Positions 6,315 through 28,458 of a stretch of 64,000 nucleotides of DNA are shown here, one piece after another. Within the stretch, counting starts at the first letter, position 1. Every line of letters begins with the position of its first letter. The position numbers and the translations under genes are program-made. A model generated the notes under the pieces. That model saw only the letters and a list, made by a program, of their open reading frames with translations, had not been told where the DNA came from and made no database searches. This DNA is from an uncultured Actinomycetes bacterium (GTDB lineage: Bacteria; Chloroflexota; Dormibacteria; Dormibacterales; Dormibacteraceae). Where the stretch lies: assembly GCA_964383855.1 (NCBI GenBank), contig CAYLIP010000004.1, positions 482-64,481 on the forward strand, written 5' to 3'.

Positions 6315-6479
6315 TCAGCCTCCGTGATCGTGAGGCTGTTTCACTGTCTGACCGACAGCGACGTACAGGCAGCCGTAGCAGACGGCGGTTTCGCAGCCTG
6401 GCTCTTCGCAGCACTCGCAGATTTCGATCGAGCGGTTGCAATGGGAGCATGAGACCGGAACGTTCGGCGTAGTCATCAT
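6315..6479 (-). CDS. 54-aa Cys-rich mini-protein (zinc-ribbon-like), absent from the ORF track
   Basis: Hand translation gives MMTTPNVPVSCSHCNRSIEICECCEEPGCETAVCYGCLYVAVGQTVKQPHDHGG. It has 8 Cys (CxxC..CxCC..C..CxxC). The ATGATGA overlap with the stop of the upstream rhodanese-CBS gene implies translational coupling. Confidence 0.5.
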   Translation of the reverse strand: MMTTPNVPVSCSHCNRSIEICECCEEPGCETAVCYGCLYVAVGQTVKQPHDHGG

Positions 6480-7165
6480 GTCGCCGCCTTCTGTGCGGCC
6501 ACCGCGTCCTCCTGTCGCAGCAGGCCGACGAGCCGTCCATCGGACGTGGTTATCGGGGAGCTGGTGAGCTGGTGCTCAGCCATGAACTGCGCCATCTCTT
6601 TGGCGGAGGCGAAGGGCCTGAAGGTGCTGGGTCCAGGGCGCATCGCCTGCTCGATCAGCTGATCCGGGTCCTTCTCGAGTTCCCTGGCCCGCAGCAGGCC
6701 GAGCACGACCCGCTCGTCGTTGACGACCACGACGGCGTCCCAACGCTGGCCTTTCACCCGGTCGCGCACATCGCCAAGCCGCTCTTTCAGACCGCAGGTC
6801 GGCGCATCCTTTCGCGCGAGGTCACCGGCTCGGGGAAGCTGCGCATTCGTCCCCTCGGTGCGCAGCCCGGCGCCCATCCAATCCACCTTGCCGTCGACGT
6901 AGTCGTAGACCCCTTCGAATCCCAAACTTTCGAGCCGCCACGCGGCTCGCGGAGACATGTCTCAAACGGCATCCCAGCAGTAGACGACGGCCGGCCGGCC
7001 GGGATCCAGCAACCGCGCCGCCTCGGACTCGATGTGGCGAAGCGGGATGTTGATCGCGCCTGGCAGATGGTCCTCCTCGTACTCATCCTTAGGAAGCACC
7101 TCGACCAGCTGAGCGCCGCCTTCGAGCAGCCGTTGAAGCTCTTCGCGATGGATTGACCTCGGCAC
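6476..7165 (-). CDS. rhodanese-domain / CBS-pair fusion protein with in-frame UGA (6962..6964); predicted selenoprotein, or a disrupted gene
   Basis: Track ORFs 6962..7165 and 6476..6958 are in the same frame, separated only by TGA-GAC. The joined reading VVYCWDAV-U-DMSPRAAWRLESLGFEGVYDYVDGKVDW restores a complete rhodanese fold. GTG start at 7165 with an AGGAGGA RBS. Confidence 0.6.
6931..6949 (-). promoter_or_regulatory. SECIS-like hairpin downstream of UGA
   Basis: On the minus strand: UGA, then 12 nt, then CGAGCCGC-GUG-GCGGCUCG (8-bp stem). Confidence 0.4.
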
Positions 7166-7412
7166 GTCTCAGTCCTCCTCTCTGCCAGAACGTCATGACT
7201 TTCAGCTTTTGCCATGGTGGCACCCCCTCCGGGGGTCATGGCGTCGATCTTGAAACCATGCCCACGCTACGCGACGGCGCAGGAACGCTCTGTCACGGCC
7301 ATCACGACCTCCCTCCGCCGGCCATGGGTTTGGACCGGTGCGTTTCAGACCGTGGCCGGCCGGACATCATCTAAGGGTGATCCCGGGTCACAGCCGCGGA
7401 TCGACACGCTCC

Positions 7413-7703
7413 ATGAACCTGCGGCACATGTCCAAATCTGAACTGCCGGAAGAAACGATCGTCGTCTACGCGACGTCCTGGTGTGGCGACTGCCGCCTCG
7501 CCAAGGCCGTGCTCGACGAGCAGCGGGCGCCCTACACCTTGATCGACATCGATCGGGAGCCGTCCGCAGTCGAGACGGTGCTGAAGCTCAACGGCGGCTA
7601 TCGAACCGTGCCAACGATAATCTTCCCCGACGGCAGGATCCTGGTCGAGCCGTCGCGCCGTGAACTCGAGGAAGCTCTGAAGGATTCCGCTTCGGCGGCC
7701 TGA
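7413..7703 (+). CDS. glutaredoxin/mycoredoxin-like thiol-disulfide oxidoreductase
   Basis: IVVYATSWCGDCRLAKAVL (CxxC) followed by TVPTIIFPDG, the thioredoxin-fold cis-Pro region. Start is ATG 7413 or 7428; the track start at 7338 is unlikely. Confidence 0.8.
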   Translation: MNLRHMSKSELPEETIVVYATSWCGDCRLAKAVLDEQRAPYTLIDIDREPSAVETVLKLNGGYRTVPTIIFPDGRILVEPSRRELEEALKDSASAA

Positions 7704-7758
7704 CGTCTGGCGGGTGAGTGGCCGAGGCCGATCGCTTCGGGCAACCGGAGGTGAAGAC

Positions 7759-8598
7759 ATGACGACGCTGAGACTGCCCAGCGGTGACGAGCTCAGTCCT
7801 GAGGATCGCGAGGTGGTCGACGGCATCGCCAGACGGCTCGGGACGCCTCCGGACGAGATGTCGATGATCTGGCAAGCGCAGCTTCACTGGCCCCAGCACC
7901 TGGAGGCCAACTACCGGCAGATGCTCTACAGCTACCGCTTCCAGGGCAGGATCCCGGCGCTGGCCAAGGAGGCCATGCACGCGGCGGTCTCCATGCACAA
8001 CCGCTGCGAGTTTTGACTGACGACGCATACGGCCGGCGTGCTCCGGCTGGGAATCGGCGAAAGGGGTGTCAGCGAGATCGTCGCCGTCGCCGAGCACGTC
8101 GCGAGCCTCTGTGCCGCCGCTGAGGCGCTGCGTCTTCCGGTCGATGTTCCCGAGGCGTCCAGGACCGCCGGCGCCGTTCGGCCGCTGGAGGCGGTCTCTC
8201 TCCAGGGCGAAGCCCGCGCCGCCATGGAGGAGATCGCGAGTTGGACTCAGGCCGGCCTGGGCACCTCTCACGTGCCTCTGATCTGGCGAAGCCTCGCCCA
8301 TCAGCCGCGGATGTTCGTCAACACCTGGCGCAAGGACCGCCTCGTCATGTCGGCGGGGCGGCTGGAACCCGGAATAAAGGCGTGCATCGCCTTCGCGGTG
8401 GCCGCCGCCAGGCAGAGCCCGTACATGATCGCGTACACCACTTCGCAGGTGAAGAGGTCGCTCGACCTCGAGGACGGCGCCCTGGTGGAGCTGGTTGCCG
8501 CGGTGATGCACTACGTCTCCTTCAACACGATCTCGCATGCGATGCTGCTGGAGCCGAGCCACACCGAGATGCGTGCGGCTGACTTCACCCAGGACTGA
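7759..8598 (+). CDS. two-domain AhpD/carboxymuconolactone-decarboxylase-like protein with in-frame UGA (8014..8016); predicted CxxU selenoprotein
   Basis: ATG at 7759 follows a GGAGGTG RBS. Track ORFs 7714..8016 and 8038..8598 share one frame. The joined reading AVSMHNRCEF-U-LTTHTAGVLRLGIGERGVSEIVAV matches the CMD-family C-x-x-C-x3-H motif, with U at the second Cys. Confidence 0.65.
8030..8049 (+). promoter_or_regulatory. SECIS-like hairpin downstream of UGA
   Basis: UGA, then 13 nt, then CGGCCGG-CGUGCU-CCGGCUG (7-bp stem including one G-U pair). Confidence 0.4.
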
Positions 8599-22717: not shown

Positions 22718-23581
22718 TCAGGTCTGAGCGCCGAAGATGACGACCGCCCTCAGGGCGAGGACGCCCACCAGGACCGCCGCCGGGGCGAGCAGCGGTGAGC
22801 GGCCGCGCAGGAAGAACGGCGTGGCCAGGCCGGCCAGGACCAGCAGCCAGAGCACGATCATGAGGGGCGAGAAGAGCCGCGCCACCGTCCCCGCGACCGC
22901 CACGGCGGCCAGGAAGATGACGATCAGCACGGCCTCGAGGAGGACGAAGTAGCGGTCGGCCCCCTCGACCCGAAGCACGCTCGGCCGCAGCTCGCGCCGC
23001 CAGCCGGCGAGCAGCAGGAGGAGCGCGGCCGAGCCGGAGAGGCCGGAAGCCAGGAAGAGCCCGCCCAGCGGCCAGGCGTCTGACCAGACAGGCTGGTTGG
23101 AGACCGCGAGCAGGACGCCGGTGTAGGCGGCGACGTAGAGTCCGGCCAGCGAGCCGGCGACCATCCAGGCCGCCGCCAGGGGACCTGTGAAGAAGCCGAG
23201 CGGCGAGCCCCGCAGGCCCATGAAGGCGTCGACGGCCGAGACGAACGCGAACAGCCCGAAGAGGAGCAGCGCGTAGGCGCCGACCGACATCGGCGACCAG
23301 GCCTTGAAGGCGGGCGTGCCGGCGCCGGTGTCGACCAGCATGTGCCAGAAGCGGAGCGGCTGGCCGAGGTCGACGGTCAGGAAGACCGGGCAGAGGGCGA
23401 CCGCCAGCAGCGACACGATGAAGGCGGTGCGGGAGGCACTGACGTCTTCCGGGCCGCCCCAGAGGCGCAGCATCGTACCCATCACGTACGACCCGCCGGC
23501 TATCCCGGCCAGAAAGAAATAGGCGAGGATCCACCACTCCCAGGCCGGCGCGCGGACGAAATGCTCGGCGGCCAGGTACAT
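22718..23581 (-). CDS. NrfD/PsrC-type polytopic membrane subunit of the formate dehydrogenase complex
   Basis: ATG at 23581 overlaps the fdnH stop. EWWILAYFFLAGIAGGSY..DLGQPLRFWHML is typical of the NrfD family. The track ORF's first 167 aa are an out-of-frame overlap. Confidence 0.8.
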   Translation of the reverse strand: MYLAAEHFVRAPAWEWWILAYFFLAGIAGGSYVMGTMLRLWGGPEDVSASRTAFIVSLLAVALCPVFLTVDLGQPLRFWHMLVDTGAGTPAFKAWSPMSVGAYALLLFGLFAFVSAVDAFMGLRGSPLGFFTGPLAAAWMVAGSLAGLYVAAYTGVLLAVSNQPVWSDAWPLGGLFLASGLSGSAALLLLLAGWRRELRPSVLRVEGADRYFVLLEAVLIVIFLAAVAVAGTVARLFSPLMIVLWLLVLAGLATPFFLRGRSPLLAPAAVLVGVLALRAVVIFGAQT

Positions 23582-24513
23582 CACCTCTTCCTCCTCGTGC
23601 CCGCACCGTCGCCGCCGCCGTCGCCGTCGCCGCCTTCGCCCCCGCCCCGCGGCCGGCCCGCCGCCGGCGCCGGCTCCCTGGCCGGCTCGACCGGCACCGT
23701 CTCGGTCATGGCCGGCGGCGACCCTCCGCGGCGGCGAAGGGCTATCAAGCCGCCGACCACGGCCAGCACCGCCGTCACGACCGCGCCCAGGTAGCCGGGA
23801 ATGTTGTTGCGGCTGGGCAGCACCGCATTGGCGGCGCTGGGCAGCTTGTATGTCTCCGGCTCGTCCATGAGCAGGAAGAAAGAGTTGAGGCCGCCGTAGA
23901 CGCTGGTGTCGCGCCCGTAGAGCTGCGCCTTCTTGAAGCCCTGTCCCTGGAGCAGAGCCAGCCGGGCGTCGGCCGCCTTGTGGAGATCGGCGAGCGTGCC
24001 GAACTGGATCGACTGCGTGGGGCAGGCCTTGGCGCAGGCGGGCATGAGGTTGTTCTGGAGCCGGTCGTAGCAGAGCGTGCACTTGTGCGCGGTCCCGGTC
24101 GTCGAACTGAAGCCGATCACCGAGTACGGGCAGGCGGAGATGCAGTCGCGGCAGCCGTTGCAGACCGGCTGCTGGATGAAAACGGTGTCGAACTCGGTCC
24201 GGATGATGGCACCGGTCGGGCAGACCTCCATGCAGGAGGCGTGCTGGCAGTGCTTGCAGACGTCGGACATCATGAGGAACGCCTGGCCGCCCGCCGCCGT
24301 CGGCTGCTTGATCTCGCCGCCGGCGGGAACGGTCTCGATGAACCGGACATGGCGCCAGTTCTGAGCGTCGAGCTGGCCCGTGTTGTCGAAGGAGTCGAGC
24401 AGCAGGTTGGGCTCATTGCCCTCGAGCTGGTTCCACTCCTTGCAGGCCACCTCGCACGCCTTGCATCCGATGCAGACGGAGGTGTCGGTGAAGAACCCGA
24501 CCGGCTCGGCCAC
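23581..24513 (-). CDS. fdnH: formate dehydrogenase iron-sulfur (beta) subunit with C-terminal TM anchor and Gly/Asp-rich tail
   Basis: Several ferredoxin Cys clusters are present (CIGCKACEVACKEWN, CKHCQHASCMEVCP, CNGCRDCISACP, CTLC..CAKACP). Confidence 0.9.
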   Translation of the reverse strand: MAEPVGFFTDTSVCIGCKACEVACKEWNQLEGNEPNLLLDSFDNTGQLDAQNWRHVRFIETVPAGGEIKQPTAAGGQAFLMMSDVCKHCQHASCMEVCPTGAIIRTEFDTVFIQQPVCNGCRDCISACPYSVIGFSSTTGTAHKCTLCYDRLQNNLMPACAKACPTQSIQFGTLADLHKAADARLALLQGQGFKKAQLYGRDTSVYGGLNSFFLLMDEPETYKLPSAANAVLPSRNNIPGYLGAVVTAVLAVVGGLIALRRRGGSPPAMTETVPVEPAREPAPAAGRPRGGGEGGDGDGGGDGAGTRRKR

Positions 24514-24529: not shown

Positions 24530-25321
24530 TCAAAACCCCATCAGGTTGGGCGTGATCTTGGCCAGCCCGCGGTCGCGCGCGTAGAGGTCGAGGGGGATGG
24601 CCGCCAGCTCGTCAACCACGGGAACCGCCCGTCCGTCCTTGGCGCAGTCGACGGTGACCAGGTACCGGCGGCAGGACGCGCAGGCGTCGACGCGCAGGCT
24701 CGGAAAGACGTCGTGGTCGGCGTAGACGGGGAGATTCCGGCTCTCCGATTCACCGCAGCCGGCGCAGACCATGCGCGCGACCGGCCAGGCCCGCGCGCAG
24801 CGCGAGCACTCGAGCATGCGCTGGCCGGTCAGCAGCGCCTCGCCGCCGGCCGTGAAGACGGAGACCTGGGGCGGCGCGCCGCACTCAGGGCAGTGCAGCC
24901 GATCCGGCGCTTGAGGACGCGGCATGACGCCGGGCAGCGCCTCCAGCACCGGCGCGCACGAGGCTCGCGCGAGATACCGCGCGGCCGGCTCCTGCTCGGC
25001 CCCGGTCAGCCAACCGCCGATCGCATCCTGCACGCCGCCCGCATAGACCAGCGCCTGGAGGGCGGTCACCAGCGTCTCCGGACCCACCGCCGCGGTGACG
25101 GTGACCACGGCGGGCGCCACCGCCTCGGCCACCCAGCGGGGCAGCTCGTCGAAGCCGGGGCCGGCCTCGGTGGCGGCGGTGCCCGCCCGCTCCTGCACAT
25201 CCAGCAGCGATGCGTAGAGGCGCAGCATCTCGCCGGCGTGAGGGTAGCGTTCGGCCAGCTCGCGGGCGCGCGTCCTGCGCGCCTGGTAGGTCGCGATCGG
25301 GGTCCCCAGTGCGGTGCTCAC
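24530..25321 (-). CDS. fdhE: formate dehydrogenase accessory protein FdhE
   Basis: Paired CxxC motifs (CPECG, CSRC, CAGCG, CASCRRYL) in the FdhE-like order. Located between the fdnG and fdnH genes. Confidence 0.8.
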   Translation of the reverse strand: MSTALGTPIATYQARRTRARELAERYPHAGEMLRLYASLLDVQERAGTAATEAGPGFDELPRWVAEAVAPAVVTVTAAVGPETLVTALQALVYAGGVQDAIGGWLTGAEQEPAARYLARASCAPVLEALPGVMPRPQAPDRLHCPECGAPPQVSVFTAGGEALLTGQRMLECSRCARAWPVARMVCAGCGESESRNLPVYADHDVFPSLRVDACASCRRYLVTVDCAKDGRAVPVVDELAAIPLDLYARDRGLAKITPNLMGF

Positions 25322-28300
25322 AGCTTCTTGATGTTGACGAGGAACGACTTGAACTCGGGGGTGCGCGAGTTGGCGTCGCCCACGAACGGGGTGAGGGCGT
25401 TGGCAAGCCAGTTCTTCGAGCGGTCGGGGTTCTGCTCGGCCGATACGCCGACGAAGCCCCAGTGGATGGGGATCCCGATGTGATAGACCTTCTTGCCGCC
25501 GACCGTGAGCGGCCCCAGTCGCTTGGTCACAAGCGCGGCCACCGTCAGCTTGCCGCGGGGGTTGAACACCTCGACCGCGTCACCGTTGGCGATGCCAAGC
25601 TTGGCGGCCAGCTCCTCGGGCACCTCGACGAAGGCCTGGGGCTGCAGGCCGACCAGCAGCGGCACGTGCTGCGTCACGTAGTGCTCGTGCTCCGTCAGGC
25701 GGTAGCTGGTGGCGATGTACGGGTAGTCCTTGGCGGTGCCGAACCGGCTCTTACGGCCCGCCTGCTGGTCGTACAGGAAGGCCACCGGGGACTCGCTCTG
25801 GCCGGGATGGAGCGGGTTCGGGATCGGCGACTCGATGGGCTCGTAGTGCTCGGGAAAGGGCCCGTCGTTGAGCGAGTTGCTGAAGAGCCGGCCCACCCCC
25901 TCGCCGTTCATGATGAAAGGCAGCCAGGCGACCGGATCCTGGGTGATCGGCTTCATGGTGGGCGGGTAGTCGGGCACGTCGCCCACCCACTTGGAGCCGT
26001 CCCACTGGATGCCGGCGCGCTTGGGGTCCCAGGGCTTGCCGTCCAGGTCGGCGGAGGCGCGGTTGTAGAGGATCCGCCGGTTGAGCGGCCACGTCCAGCC
26101 CCACTGGTGGTAGAAGCCAAGGCCGGTCGGATCGTTCTTGGCCGGGTCCTGGATGCCGTCGCGGCGCTTCATGAGGTTGCCGGCGTCGGGATAGGAGCCG
26201 GTGTAGATCCAGTCGCCGGCGGTGGTGGAGCCGTCGTCCTTCAGGTTGGCGAAGGTCGTCAGCTGCTTGCCGGTCGTGAGGTCCTGGCCATTGATCTCGC
26301 GGGCGAGCTCGTCCAGGTCGGGCTTGACCGGGTCCTTGTAATTGAAGGTCAGCGCCTTGATCGGGTCGGGAAACTTGCCGCCTGACTGGTAGAGCTTGCG
26401 CACCCGCTGAAAGAGATCGGCCAGGATCCAGTGGTCGTGCCGCGATTCACCCTCGGGCGGGATCACGGCGTCCTTCCACTGGCCCATCCGCCCGCTGTTG
26501 ACGAAGGAGCCCTCCTTCTCGATCCAGTGCGTCGCGGGCAGCATGAAGACCTCGGTCTGGATGTTCTTGGGGTCGAGGCCGGGCGCATGCCAGAACTCGC
26601 TGGACGTCGTCTTGAGCGGGTCCATCACGACCAGCCACTTGAGGTTGGACAGCGCTTGCAGGACCTGGTTGGAGTCGGGACCGATGCTGGTCGCCGTCAT
26701 CCCGCTCAGGATCACCCCCTGCATCTTTCCCTTCAGCGCCTGGTCGTAGATCGAGATCCAGCTCGAGTTGGCCGCCGGCTTGGGGATGTAGGAGTACGCG
26801 AAGTCGTTGTCCTTGGTCGCGGCATCGCCGTACCAGGTCTTCAGCAGCGAGACCAGGAACTTCTTGTAGTTGAGACCGAAAAAGTTCCAGGAGTTGGGGT
26901 CGCTCTTCTTGGGCGGCGCTTTGTCGTTGTACTGGGCGACCGTCTGCCATGCGGGATCGGGGATCTTGAGATAGCCGGGAAGGATCTCCCAGGAGATGGC
27001 GTTGTCCGTGTTGCCCTGGATGTTGGCGTGTCCGCGCTCGGCGTTCATGCCGCCGCCGGGCATGCCCATGTTGCCCAGCAGCAGCTGGAGGACGGCGCCG
27101 CTGCGGATCAGCTGGACGCCGGTGGTGTGGTGCGTCAGGCCGACCGCGTAGACGATCGTCATCACCTTGTCCGGCTTCCCCATCTCGCCGACCAGCCTGG
27201 CGACCTCCAGGAACTGGTCCTTAGGTATGCCGGTGACCTGCTCCACCATCTCCGGCGTGTAGCGCGAGTAGTGCTTCTTCATGAGCTGGAAGACGGTCTG
27301 CGGGTCCTGCAGCGTCATGTCGCGGGCGGCGTAGCTGTCGCTGCCGGTGGTCTGCGGTCCCTGGCCCTGCCCCAACCCTGCGTTCTGGTCGTTCTGGCTG
27401 GGCGGCGTGGCGTTCTGGTACGCCCAGGTCGAGATGTCGTAGCTGCGCTTGGCCTTGTCGTAGCCGCTGAACAGCCCGTCCGTGAAGCCGAAGCCCTCCT
27501 TAACCAGGAAGGAGGCGTTGGTGTAGTGCTTGACGTACTCGGCCTGGTGGAGGTTGTTCGAGAGCACGTAGTTGATCAGTCCGCCGAAGTAGGCGACGTC
27601 GCTACCCGTGCGAATGCGCAGGTAGATGTCGGCCATCGCCGAAGTCCGCGTGAAGCGCGGGTCGGCGTGGACGATCCGGGCACCGCCGCCGCTGCCCGGA
27701 CCCCGCTTGGGATCGAGCTTGGCCTTGACGAACCACTGGAACCCGACCGGGTGCGCCTCCGCCGGGTTGGCGCCGTTGATCAGGATCAGGTCGGCGTTCT
27801 TGATGTCGCGCCAGTGGTTGGTCATGGCGCCTCTCCCGAACGTGGCCGCCAAACTGACGACCGTCGGGCCGTGTCAAACGCGGGCCTGTTGCTCTATGTG
27901 CACCACGCCAAGGCCACGCATGACCTTGGCGGCGAAGTAGCCCTCCTCGCTGCTGAAGGCGGCCCCGCCGGCGAAGGCGATGCCCTCGGTCCGGTTGACC
28001 GTGTTGCCGGCCGCATCCTGGGCGACGAACGTCGCGTCCCGCGAAGCCTTGATGTTCTGCGCGATCTTGTCGAGCACGAAGTCCCAGGACTTCTCCTGCC
28101 AGGCGGAGCTGCCGGGAGCCCGGTAGAGCGGCTTCTGAACGCGGCGGGCGGACACGGCCAGCTGCATGGAGCTGGCGCCCTTGGGACACAGCCGGCCCTC
28201 GTTGACCGGGCTGTTGGGGTCGCCTTCGATCTGCAGGAGCTCGGTCTTGCCGCCGGCGCCGGTCCGCGTGTAGGCGACCAGCGAGCAGCCCACCGCGCAG

Positions 28301-28458
28301 TAGGGGCAGACGCTGTGCGATTCCCTGGCGTCGGCGATCCGCAGGCCCTGGCTCACGGTGCGTGCCTGAGCGAGATCAAAGCCGAGCCCGGCCACGCCCA
28401 GGGCGGCGGTGGAGGCTGCTCCAATCTTGATGAAGTCACGCCTGGAGACGTGAGTCAT
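25318..28458 (-). CDS. fdnG: formate dehydrogenase-N-type catalytic (alpha) subunit, selenocysteine-containing (UGA at 27874..27876), Tat-exported
   Basis: Track ORFs 27874..28458 and 25318..27852 are in one frame (3141 nt). The junction IEQQARV-U-HGPTVVSLAATFGRGAMTNHW matches the E. coli FdnG Sec site (ARVUHGPTV). Also has the twin-arginine signal SRRDFIK and a CPYCAVGC FeS motif. Confidence 0.9.

Follow-up and report, generated by a model that had tools for sequence, protein, structure and literature searches.

A rhodanese-CBS gene with a conserved in-frame UGA and a small Cys-rich partner gene: a probable selenoprotein with a C-x4-U active-site loop

In the window, i.e., the whole stretch of 64,000 nucleotides of DNA that was analysed here, positions 7165 to 6476 of the minus strand are one gene, which codes for a rhodanese domain followed by a CBS pair and is interrupted only by a single in-frame UGA. 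Codon conservation, the Cys residue found at the same column in homologues, and a constrained hairpin 3' of the stop codon suggest that this UGA is very probably decoded as selenocysteine (Sec). The explanation as a whole, a single gene for a selenoprotein of 229 residues, is in our judgment highly likely. Directly downstream of most loci of this kind we newly found a gene for a protein of ~50 aa with seven Cys residues. The coordinates of all features are collected in Table 1.

Table 1. Features of the rhodanese-CBS locus and of the FdnG gene in the window
Feature	Position	Strand	Basis or remarks
Predicted rhodanese-CBS selenoprotein gene, 229 residues	6476..7165	minus	230-codon single frame, sole internal stop TGA
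GTG start	7165..7163	minus	
Stop codon of rhodanese-CBS gene	6478..6476	minus	
Shine-Dalgarno site AGGAGG, 8 nt 5' of GTG start	7174..7179	minus	Read from sequence
First mechanical ORF, 67 aa, GTG start	6962..7165	minus	
Second mechanical ORF, 160 aa	6476..6958	minus	Same frame as 6962..7165
Rhodanese domain PF00581, residues 8-97	6875..7144	minus	Pfam, E 4.8e-14
Cys63 codon TGC, canonical rhodanese catalytic position, end of VVYC strand	6977..6979	minus	Invariant in alignments
In-frame UGA in active-site loop, proposed Sec68 codon	6962..6964	minus	TGA conservation, Cys in homologues
CBS pair (Bateman module), residues ~118-228	6482..6814	minus	Pfam, homologue model, Foldseek
Putative SECIS-type hairpin within coding region	6931..6949	minus	8-bp stem, loop GUG
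Partner gene, 54 aa	6315..6479	minus	ATG overlaps upstream stop (ATGA)
FdnG	28458..25318	minus	UGA at 27876..27874, context QQARV-U-HGPTV

A first, sequence-only reading of this DNA had described two minus-strand open reading frames (ORFs) of the same frame that are separated by nothing but TGA and one GAC codon, and had judged neither of them plausible as a protein by itself. The observation is confirmed and its interpretation supported: each of the checks proposed in that reading and run here had a favourable outcome. The arrangement is present as described (joined translation, ..RPAVVYCWDAV-*-DMSPRAAWRLESLGF..), and the judgment was borne out: the 67-aa piece ends within the active-site loop, the 160-aa piece begins mid-helix, and full-length Cys homologues are colinear with the joined frame. 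Relatives were collected in a species scan with one genome per species, which yielded 574 relatives, and the codon was read in the best 80 of them. In all 80 of these loci, residues 1 to ~224 aligned straight over the TGA by tblastn, and conservation at the protein level was found on both of its flanks. The ORF is thus conserved both before and after the in-frame UGA, as expected for a bacterial selenoprotein gene. A split into two independently conserved genes, which the sequence-only reading had considered as a possible outcome, was not what the relatives displayed; they carry one continuous frame.

That the 67-aa rhodanese fragment and the 160-aa CBS protein are themselves the products, either of two genes or of programmed termination, is highly improbable. 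Gene callers and GenBank do give two ORFs, and in the window an ATG lies two codons past the TGA, but inspection of the sequence before this ATG (at 6958) revealed no Shine-Dalgarno site comparable to the strong AGGAGG that precedes the GTG start. Moreover, among the 66 Sec forms (as we designate the sequences with TGA at this site) that were tabulated with the peptide RAAWRLE, the codon two after TGA was ATG in only 21, and CTC, CTG, ATC, CTT, or TTG in the rest, so that a second gene cannot start there in most species; neither a start codon nor a ribosome-binding site past the TGA is conserved. Together with a first piece that stops inside the active-site loop, a second that sets in mid-helix, and the colinear Cys homologues, this speaks for one gene with one product. 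In all public records examined, the gene appears either split into 67-aa and 160-aa "hypothetical" ORFs or, on some short JGI contigs, as a full-length call in which TGA is read as Trp (genetic code 4). Only 19 of the best 150 cluster representatives at 50% identity were full length; ~130 of these 150 start 3' of the TGA, usually with the Met that lies two codons further on.

A pseudogene, or a base-call error that turned TGC or TGT into TGA, would require a single base change (TGC to TGA), and resequencing of the locus had been proposed in order to exclude such an error. However, 926 nt including the TGA were identical in 4 contigs that came from independent assemblies of different sequencing runs, and TGA was found in 79/80 species (best 80 of 574 relatives) with both flanks conserved as protein. 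These two observations already refute an error or a decayed gene, to which we assign a negligible probability, and the single intact gene is the reading pursued below.

The one exception among the 80 codons was CGA. TGA at exactly one codon in 79 of the 80 species genomes makes the match to the TGA site far exceed chance. Cys is found at this column in more distant homologues, including most of the full-length ones in the databases. A search with the loop pattern for such Cys forms returned 120 metagenome loci, the loop codon could be extracted in 117 of them (101 unique sequences), and it was TGC or TGT in all 117. Some database homologues appeared to have Trp instead; in one of these, P0015, the DNA reads TGA, and translation of the gene under code 11 fails to reproduce the query. 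The "Trp" homologues on short JGI contigs are therefore Sec forms that were read with code 4. The sequence-only reading had cited a rhodanese subfamily with the motif YC-x4-C-x2-S-x2-AA and had placed the UGA on its second Cys. This motif is real, since it occurs in the full-length Cys homologues and in the BH2092 structure 3NHV, and the placement of the UGA agrees with Cys in the homologue column and TGA behind the "Trp" entries.

The best 80 relatives belonged to Actinomycetota, to Candidatus Dormiibacterota (including older bins named "Chloroflexi CF_"), and to a few other groups. Neighbour-joining placed the TGA forms in one clade of 109 leaves; ~20 Cys forms, 2 Arg forms (CGA), and 1 Ser form were nested within the Sec clade, and ~90 Cys forms fell outside. 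The distribution is best explained by a family that is one clade, mainly of soil Actinomycetota and Dormiibacterota. The tree further suggests a single Sec-using lineage with occasional secondary replacement of Sec by Cys, a reading that is provisional because a distance tree of this kind carries no support values.

An 8-bp hairpin beginning 12 nt after the UGA, which had also been pointed out in the sequence-only reading, was confirmed. The stem strand CGAGCCGC (6949..6942) pairs with GCGGCUCG (6938..6931) around a GUG loop (6941..6939); the gap between UGA and stem is exactly 12 nt, and the loop begins 20 nt past the UGA. The hairpin has an energy of -15.3 kcal/mol, and an equally good fold arose in 1 of 200 shuffles. 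The bSECIS model specifies a loop of 3 to 9 nt, a stem of 4 to 16 bp, a G at the loop's opening two nucleotides, as G and then G or U, a spacing of 16 to 37 nt between UGA and loop, and an energy of at most -7.5 kcal/mol (PMC13188914), and the hairpin agrees with the model of PMC13188914 on every one of these points. The geometry is shared across the family: among 81 Sec-form sequences, the stem ran unbroken for 7 bp or more in 77, the loop was GUG in 69, and it began 19 to 20 nt past the UGA in 80. Rfam gave no match to a SECIS family, neither in the entire window at gathering thresholds nor at E values up to 10 over positions 6800..7100; as Rfam is without a matching bacterial model, this negative result carries no information.

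Since the stem lies in the codons for the conserved peptide RAAWRLE, synonymous sites were examined. Counted from the UGA, Ala +6 was encoded by GCC in 80/81 Sec forms versus 12/17 Cys forms that share this peptide, Ala +7 by GCG in 81/81 versus 11/17, Arg +9 by CGG in 80/81 versus 14/17, and Leu +10 by CTC in 81/81 versus 13/17. In the Sec forms, the codon entropy of these four stem codons was 0 to 0.10 bit, compared with 1.1 to 2.3 for the remaining codons of the gene that have 4- or 6-fold degeneracy; the adjacent Ser, Pro, and Gly codons varied freely. The best stems of the Cys forms centred on 4 bp. As a counterpoint, 28 of the 101 Cys forms also had stems of 7 bp or more, because the hairpin encodes a conserved peptide (RAAWRLE) in codons that are preferred at high G+C. 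Variation within the stem was one-sided, either from A-U to G-U or, at the bottom pair only, from C-G to an A/G mismatch, and no compensatory double changes were seen among the 81 Sec-form sequences. The case for a SECIS element therefore rests on frozen synonymous sites and not on covariation. At the level of sequence comparison, these sites establish that the hairpin 3' of the UGA is under RNA-level selection.

The host decodes Sec, judging by FdnG. As the sequence-only reading had claimed, the window contains a canonical Sec-containing FdnG (ARV-U-HGP), with a Tat signal and the motif CPYCAVGC; downstream of its UGA comes an 8-bp hairpin whose loop, GUU, lies 19 nt past the UGA. A third in-frame UGA of the window lies in an AhpD-like gene and has a 7-bp hairpin with the loop CGUGCU, 20 nt past the UGA. 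Three UGAs with one hairpin geometry in one organism are what a single SelB would require. The genes selA, selB, selC, and selD were not found within the 64-kb window, including the surroundings of FdnG.

These features bear on a further explanation, in which the UGA would be read through without Sec, by a near-cognate tRNA (Trp or Cys) or by other recoding, and in which the hairpin would merely slow termination. Such readthrough would fit the one locus with CGA and the one homologue with Ser at the UGA site, which indicate that other residues are tolerated in some lineages. We nevertheless consider it improbable: Cys in the homologue column makes a classic Cys/Sec pair, the hairpin shares its spacing and a G-U loop with the FdnG SECIS of the same window, and Sec decoding is already in use in this organism, for FdnG. 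Selenocysteine remains the preferred reading of this codon. Its insertion would be brought about by SelB with Sec-tRNA, recruited by the 8-bp/GUG hairpin 12 nt 3' of the UGA, and would presumably depend on SelB.

The prediction that the joined protein is a rhodanese-CBS fusion was upheld by Pfam, which found both PF00581 and PF00571 on it. The rhodanese profile scored 53.1 bits, above its gathering score of 22.2, and the Cys at the catalytic position is present, so that the first half can be counted among the rhodaneses. The codon of Cys63 was TGC in 81/81 Sec-form sequences. The UGA follows five residues past Cys63, in the order VVYC63-WDAV-U68-DMS and then PRAAW. In the second half, PF00571 matched one CBS repeat (residues 172-224, E 4.5e-11). 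For the structure, the Cys homologue P0007 was used as a stand-in for the window protein; its AlphaFold model (pLDDT 95.4) comprised the entire CBS module, and Foldseek matched the CBS half of P0007 to AcuB, the CBS domain of MgtE, and CBSX1/2 with E values of ~1e-9. By way of this homologue model and the Foldseek matches, two CBS repeats are seen to fold as one module.

The small gene downstream codes for a protein with the pattern C-x2-C-x6-C-x2-C-x4-C-x4-C-x2-C, whose seven Cys are invariant. Members of the partner family are ~50 aa long, and most end in PHxHGG immediately before the stop (QPHDHGG in the window copy); in one sub-group, a basic tail rich in Ser and Thr takes the place of PHxHGG. 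The partner gene often overlaps the gene before it. Among 79 Sec-form loci with room for such an ORF, the partner was directly downstream in 58 by a position-restricted motif scan and in up to 63 by tblastn, and the ORF was absent from 17. By contrast, it was found downstream in 0/75 Cys-form loci, including four Cys forms that are nested in the Sec clade. The partner ORF is thus specific to Sec forms. Other neighbours in the window, i.e., a Grx-like gene, the AhpD-like gene, a TetR gene, and an F420-type reductase, co-occurred with the family in 0/80 loci.

No Pfam or NCBIfam model matched the partner protein, and a profile search retrieved only 125 relatives, all but one of them unnamed or "hypothetical". 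The exception bears an unrelated JGI label, SIR2-family deacetylase. The fold of the partner was predicted with moderate confidence (pLDDT 78.6), and the model had no significant match in the PDB; the best ones, at E >1, were zinc fingers of the ZZ, PHD, and RING (binuclear) types. With regard to the C-terminal Gly-Gly, a ThiS/MoaD-like sulfur carrier was considered and rejected, as the predicted fold is not a beta-grasp; in addition, no E1-like gene is linked, and ~10 of the 58 partners are without the motif.

A mechanism can be proposed along the following lines. Cys63 and Sec68, placed as C-x4-U-x2-S in an extended loop, would act as a redox or sulfane-transfer pair, in which Sec68 might accept the persulfide (sulfane) sulfur carried by Cys63 or form a selenenylsulfide with it. 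Cys/Sec pairs of other thiol-type selenoproteins form selenenylsulfides. The CBS pair could gate the activity of Cys63 and Sec68 through binding of an adenosine ligand, and the seven-Cys protein might serve as a dedicated substrate of the selenoprotein or as its partner in an electron or sulfur relay. A dedicated role of this kind would explain why the partner is retained only where Sec is retained. To our knowledge, the C-x4-C rhodanese subfamily contains no protein to which a function has been assigned, and for this reason the mechanistic part, i.e., the chemistry of Cys63 and Sec68, the gating by the CBS pair, and the role of the partner, is offered tentatively, with the chances somewhat against it.

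Reports of new selenoprotein families in bacteria continue to appear regularly, so that one more is not surprising in itself. What makes this one worth following up, for specialists in selenoproteins and in soil microbiomes, is the breadth of the family, its uniform mis-annotation (the Sec gene is cut in two, or its TGA is read as Trp), and the Sec-specific partner gene. If the assignment is true, it would add a new selenoprotein family for soil Actinomycetota and Dormiibacterota, lineages absent from the selenoproteome surveys consulted here; should the wider view given at the end also hold, selenium would be tied to a specific redox or sulfur relay in lineages that are not regarded as selenoprotein-rich. 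The Sec form and its seven-Cys partner are a testable pair with which one can ask why Sec and not Cys is used in a rhodanese loop; the same pair could show what the C-x4-C rhodanese subfamily represented by BH2092 does.

BH2092 of Bacillus halodurans (PDB 3NHV and 3O3W), a structural-genomics entry, was the best match of the rhodanese half, both in sequence (E 1e-8) and in fold (30% identity at an rmsd of 1.7 A, with the P0007 model). The extended loop is shared, as YCWGPAC-x2-[ST]-x2-AA (ITYCWGPACNGATKAAAKFAQLGF in 3NHV), but BH2092 differs in having Cys for Sec and no CBS pair. The Cys rhodanese-CBS proteins, which IMG lists as [quoted passage not shown], share the architecture and the length at 40 to 70% identity and have Cys at the Sec column. 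Unlike the Sec forms, they have no UGA, no constrained hairpin, and no Cys-rich gene downstream (0/75).

The 2026 catalogue of prokaryotic selenoproteins contains five rhodanese-like forms, with the motifs UxxS (form 1, WP_010941598.1), UxxG (form 2), CxU (form 3, NF041203), UxxG (form 4), and UxxxxU (form 5, TsoB, NF045694) (PMC13188914). The first finds of forms 1 to 4 were made in Geobacter, Deltaproteobacteria, and marine metagenomes (PMC13188914). Earlier surveys likewise located such proteins in Deltaproteobacteria and marine metagenomes, and the sequence-only reading had mentioned rhodanese-related selenoproteins from metagenomic surveys. Like the protein described here, forms 1 to 4 have a single rhodanese domain with Sec in or beside the active-site loop, but none of them is described with a CBS pair, with a small Cys-rich partner, or in Actinomycetota or Dormiibacterota. 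Forms 2 and 4 have Sec in place of the catalytic Cys; here Cys63 is kept, and Sec would stand at +5, followed by D-M-S. The model of form 3, NF041203, gave no match at E <=0.01, and its motif is CxU as opposed to C-x4-U. Form 1, which was compared by its short motif alone, is literally fitted by U-D-M-S, since its motif is UxxS.

TsoB, form 5 (NF045694; Haft & Tolstoy 2025, as listed in PMC13188914), resembles the window protein in its rhodanese domain and in a five-spaced pair, U-x4-U there versus C-x4-U here. Its model was the sole NCBIfam selenoprotein match (residues 8-115 against profile positions 49-168, E 8.6e-5), and U-x4-U of TsoB may represent the same two loop positions as C-x4-U. 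However, the match reached 20.8 bits, far below the cut-off of 805, and the window protein has one Sec and no DsbD-like part, which places it outside the TsoB family; as listed there, TsoB is a fusion of ~570 residues with a DsbD-like part, two Sec, no CBS pair, and a different gene neighbourhood. None of the NCBIfam selenoprotein models was reached at its cut-off by the 229-residue protein.

The sequence-only reading had regarded a Sec-rhodanese fused to a CBS pair as an unfamiliar architecture. This agrees with the catalogue, in which none of the five forms is described as C-x4-U or with a CBS pair (PMC13188914); with respect to form 1 (UxxS), the claim of novelty stands at the level of the motif only. 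We classify the present family as an additional form of rhodanese-like selenoprotein whose architecture, lineage, and partner are new, with form 1 compared by motif alone, because no model is reached, the catalytic Cys is kept, and a CBS pair is present, while links to TsoB and form 1 may exist. The wider view, that this is an uncatalogued sixth rhodanese-like form (C-x4-U plus CBS pair), widespread and diverse among soil Actinomycetota and Dormiibacterota, and working as a two-component system with a Sec-only seven-Cys metalloprotein that usually ends in PHxHGG, we hold to have an even chance of being correct.

Five database homologues of the rhodanese-CBS protein (P0015, P0010, P0016, P0019 and P0059), all derived from short JGI contigs, carried Trp at the column occupied by selenocysteine (Sec) in the window. 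For P0015 (locus L205:78-749), the one of these five inspected at the DNA level, the codon behind the Trp was TGA, indicating that the gene caller had applied genetic code 4. In protein alignments, "W" entries of this kind can mask Sec codons. A few members of the Sec clade, the clade of TGA-form sequences, had Arg (P0005; locus L060, CGA at position 184) or Ser (P0026) at the Sec position, and L060 had its downstream hairpin still intact. These members suggest that the Sec codon was lost recently or that the copy is inactive.

TGA-form rhodanese-CBS loci were also present in two bins, one labelled as the archaeon Candidatus Nitrosopolaris (L039, DASPYG010000152.1) and one assigned to Bacillota (L021, JAJPKS010000042.1). 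Each showed ∼70% identity to the copies from Actinomycetota and Dormiibacterota, and both had the same partner ORF, the small 7-Cys protein gene. Mis-binning seems a more likely explanation for their placement than transfer.

Within the window, the SECIS hairpin of the canonical FdnG gene had a GUU loop 19 nt 3' of the UGA. FdhE-like and NrfD-type membrane subunit genes followed FdnG, and no selA, selB or selD was found close to it in the window.

Further features of the window
Feature	Coordinates	Strand	Characteristics
Glutaredoxin-like protein	7413..7703	+	WCGDC motif; PF00462, E 2.3e-13
AhpD/carboxymuconolactone-decarboxylase-like ORF	7714..8598	+	in-frame TGA at 8014..8016; hairpin 8030..8049
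NrfD-type membrane subunit gene	22721..24082		after FdnG
FdhE-like gene	24533..25321		after FdnG
FdnG, canonical, Sec-containing	25318..28458	-	TGA 27874..27876; ARV-U-HGP, CPYCAVGC motif, Tat signal

The glutaredoxin-like gene is divergent from the rhodanese-CBS gene and lies immediately ahead of the AhpD-like ORF; this local redox cluster was not kept in the other 80 rhodanese-CBS loci, the best 80 of 574 relatives. The AhpD-like ORF, which appears in public gene calls as two ORFs of 85 and 186 aa, looks like a second unannotated selenoprotein in the window. Its in-frame TGA falls within an NRCEF-U-LTTH (CxxU) motif, and a 7-bp hairpin with the loop CGUGCU is located 20 nt downstream of the UGA. 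The ORF matched PF02627. It also matched TIGR01926, a family catalogued as a CxxU selenoprotein, with a score under the curated cut-off.
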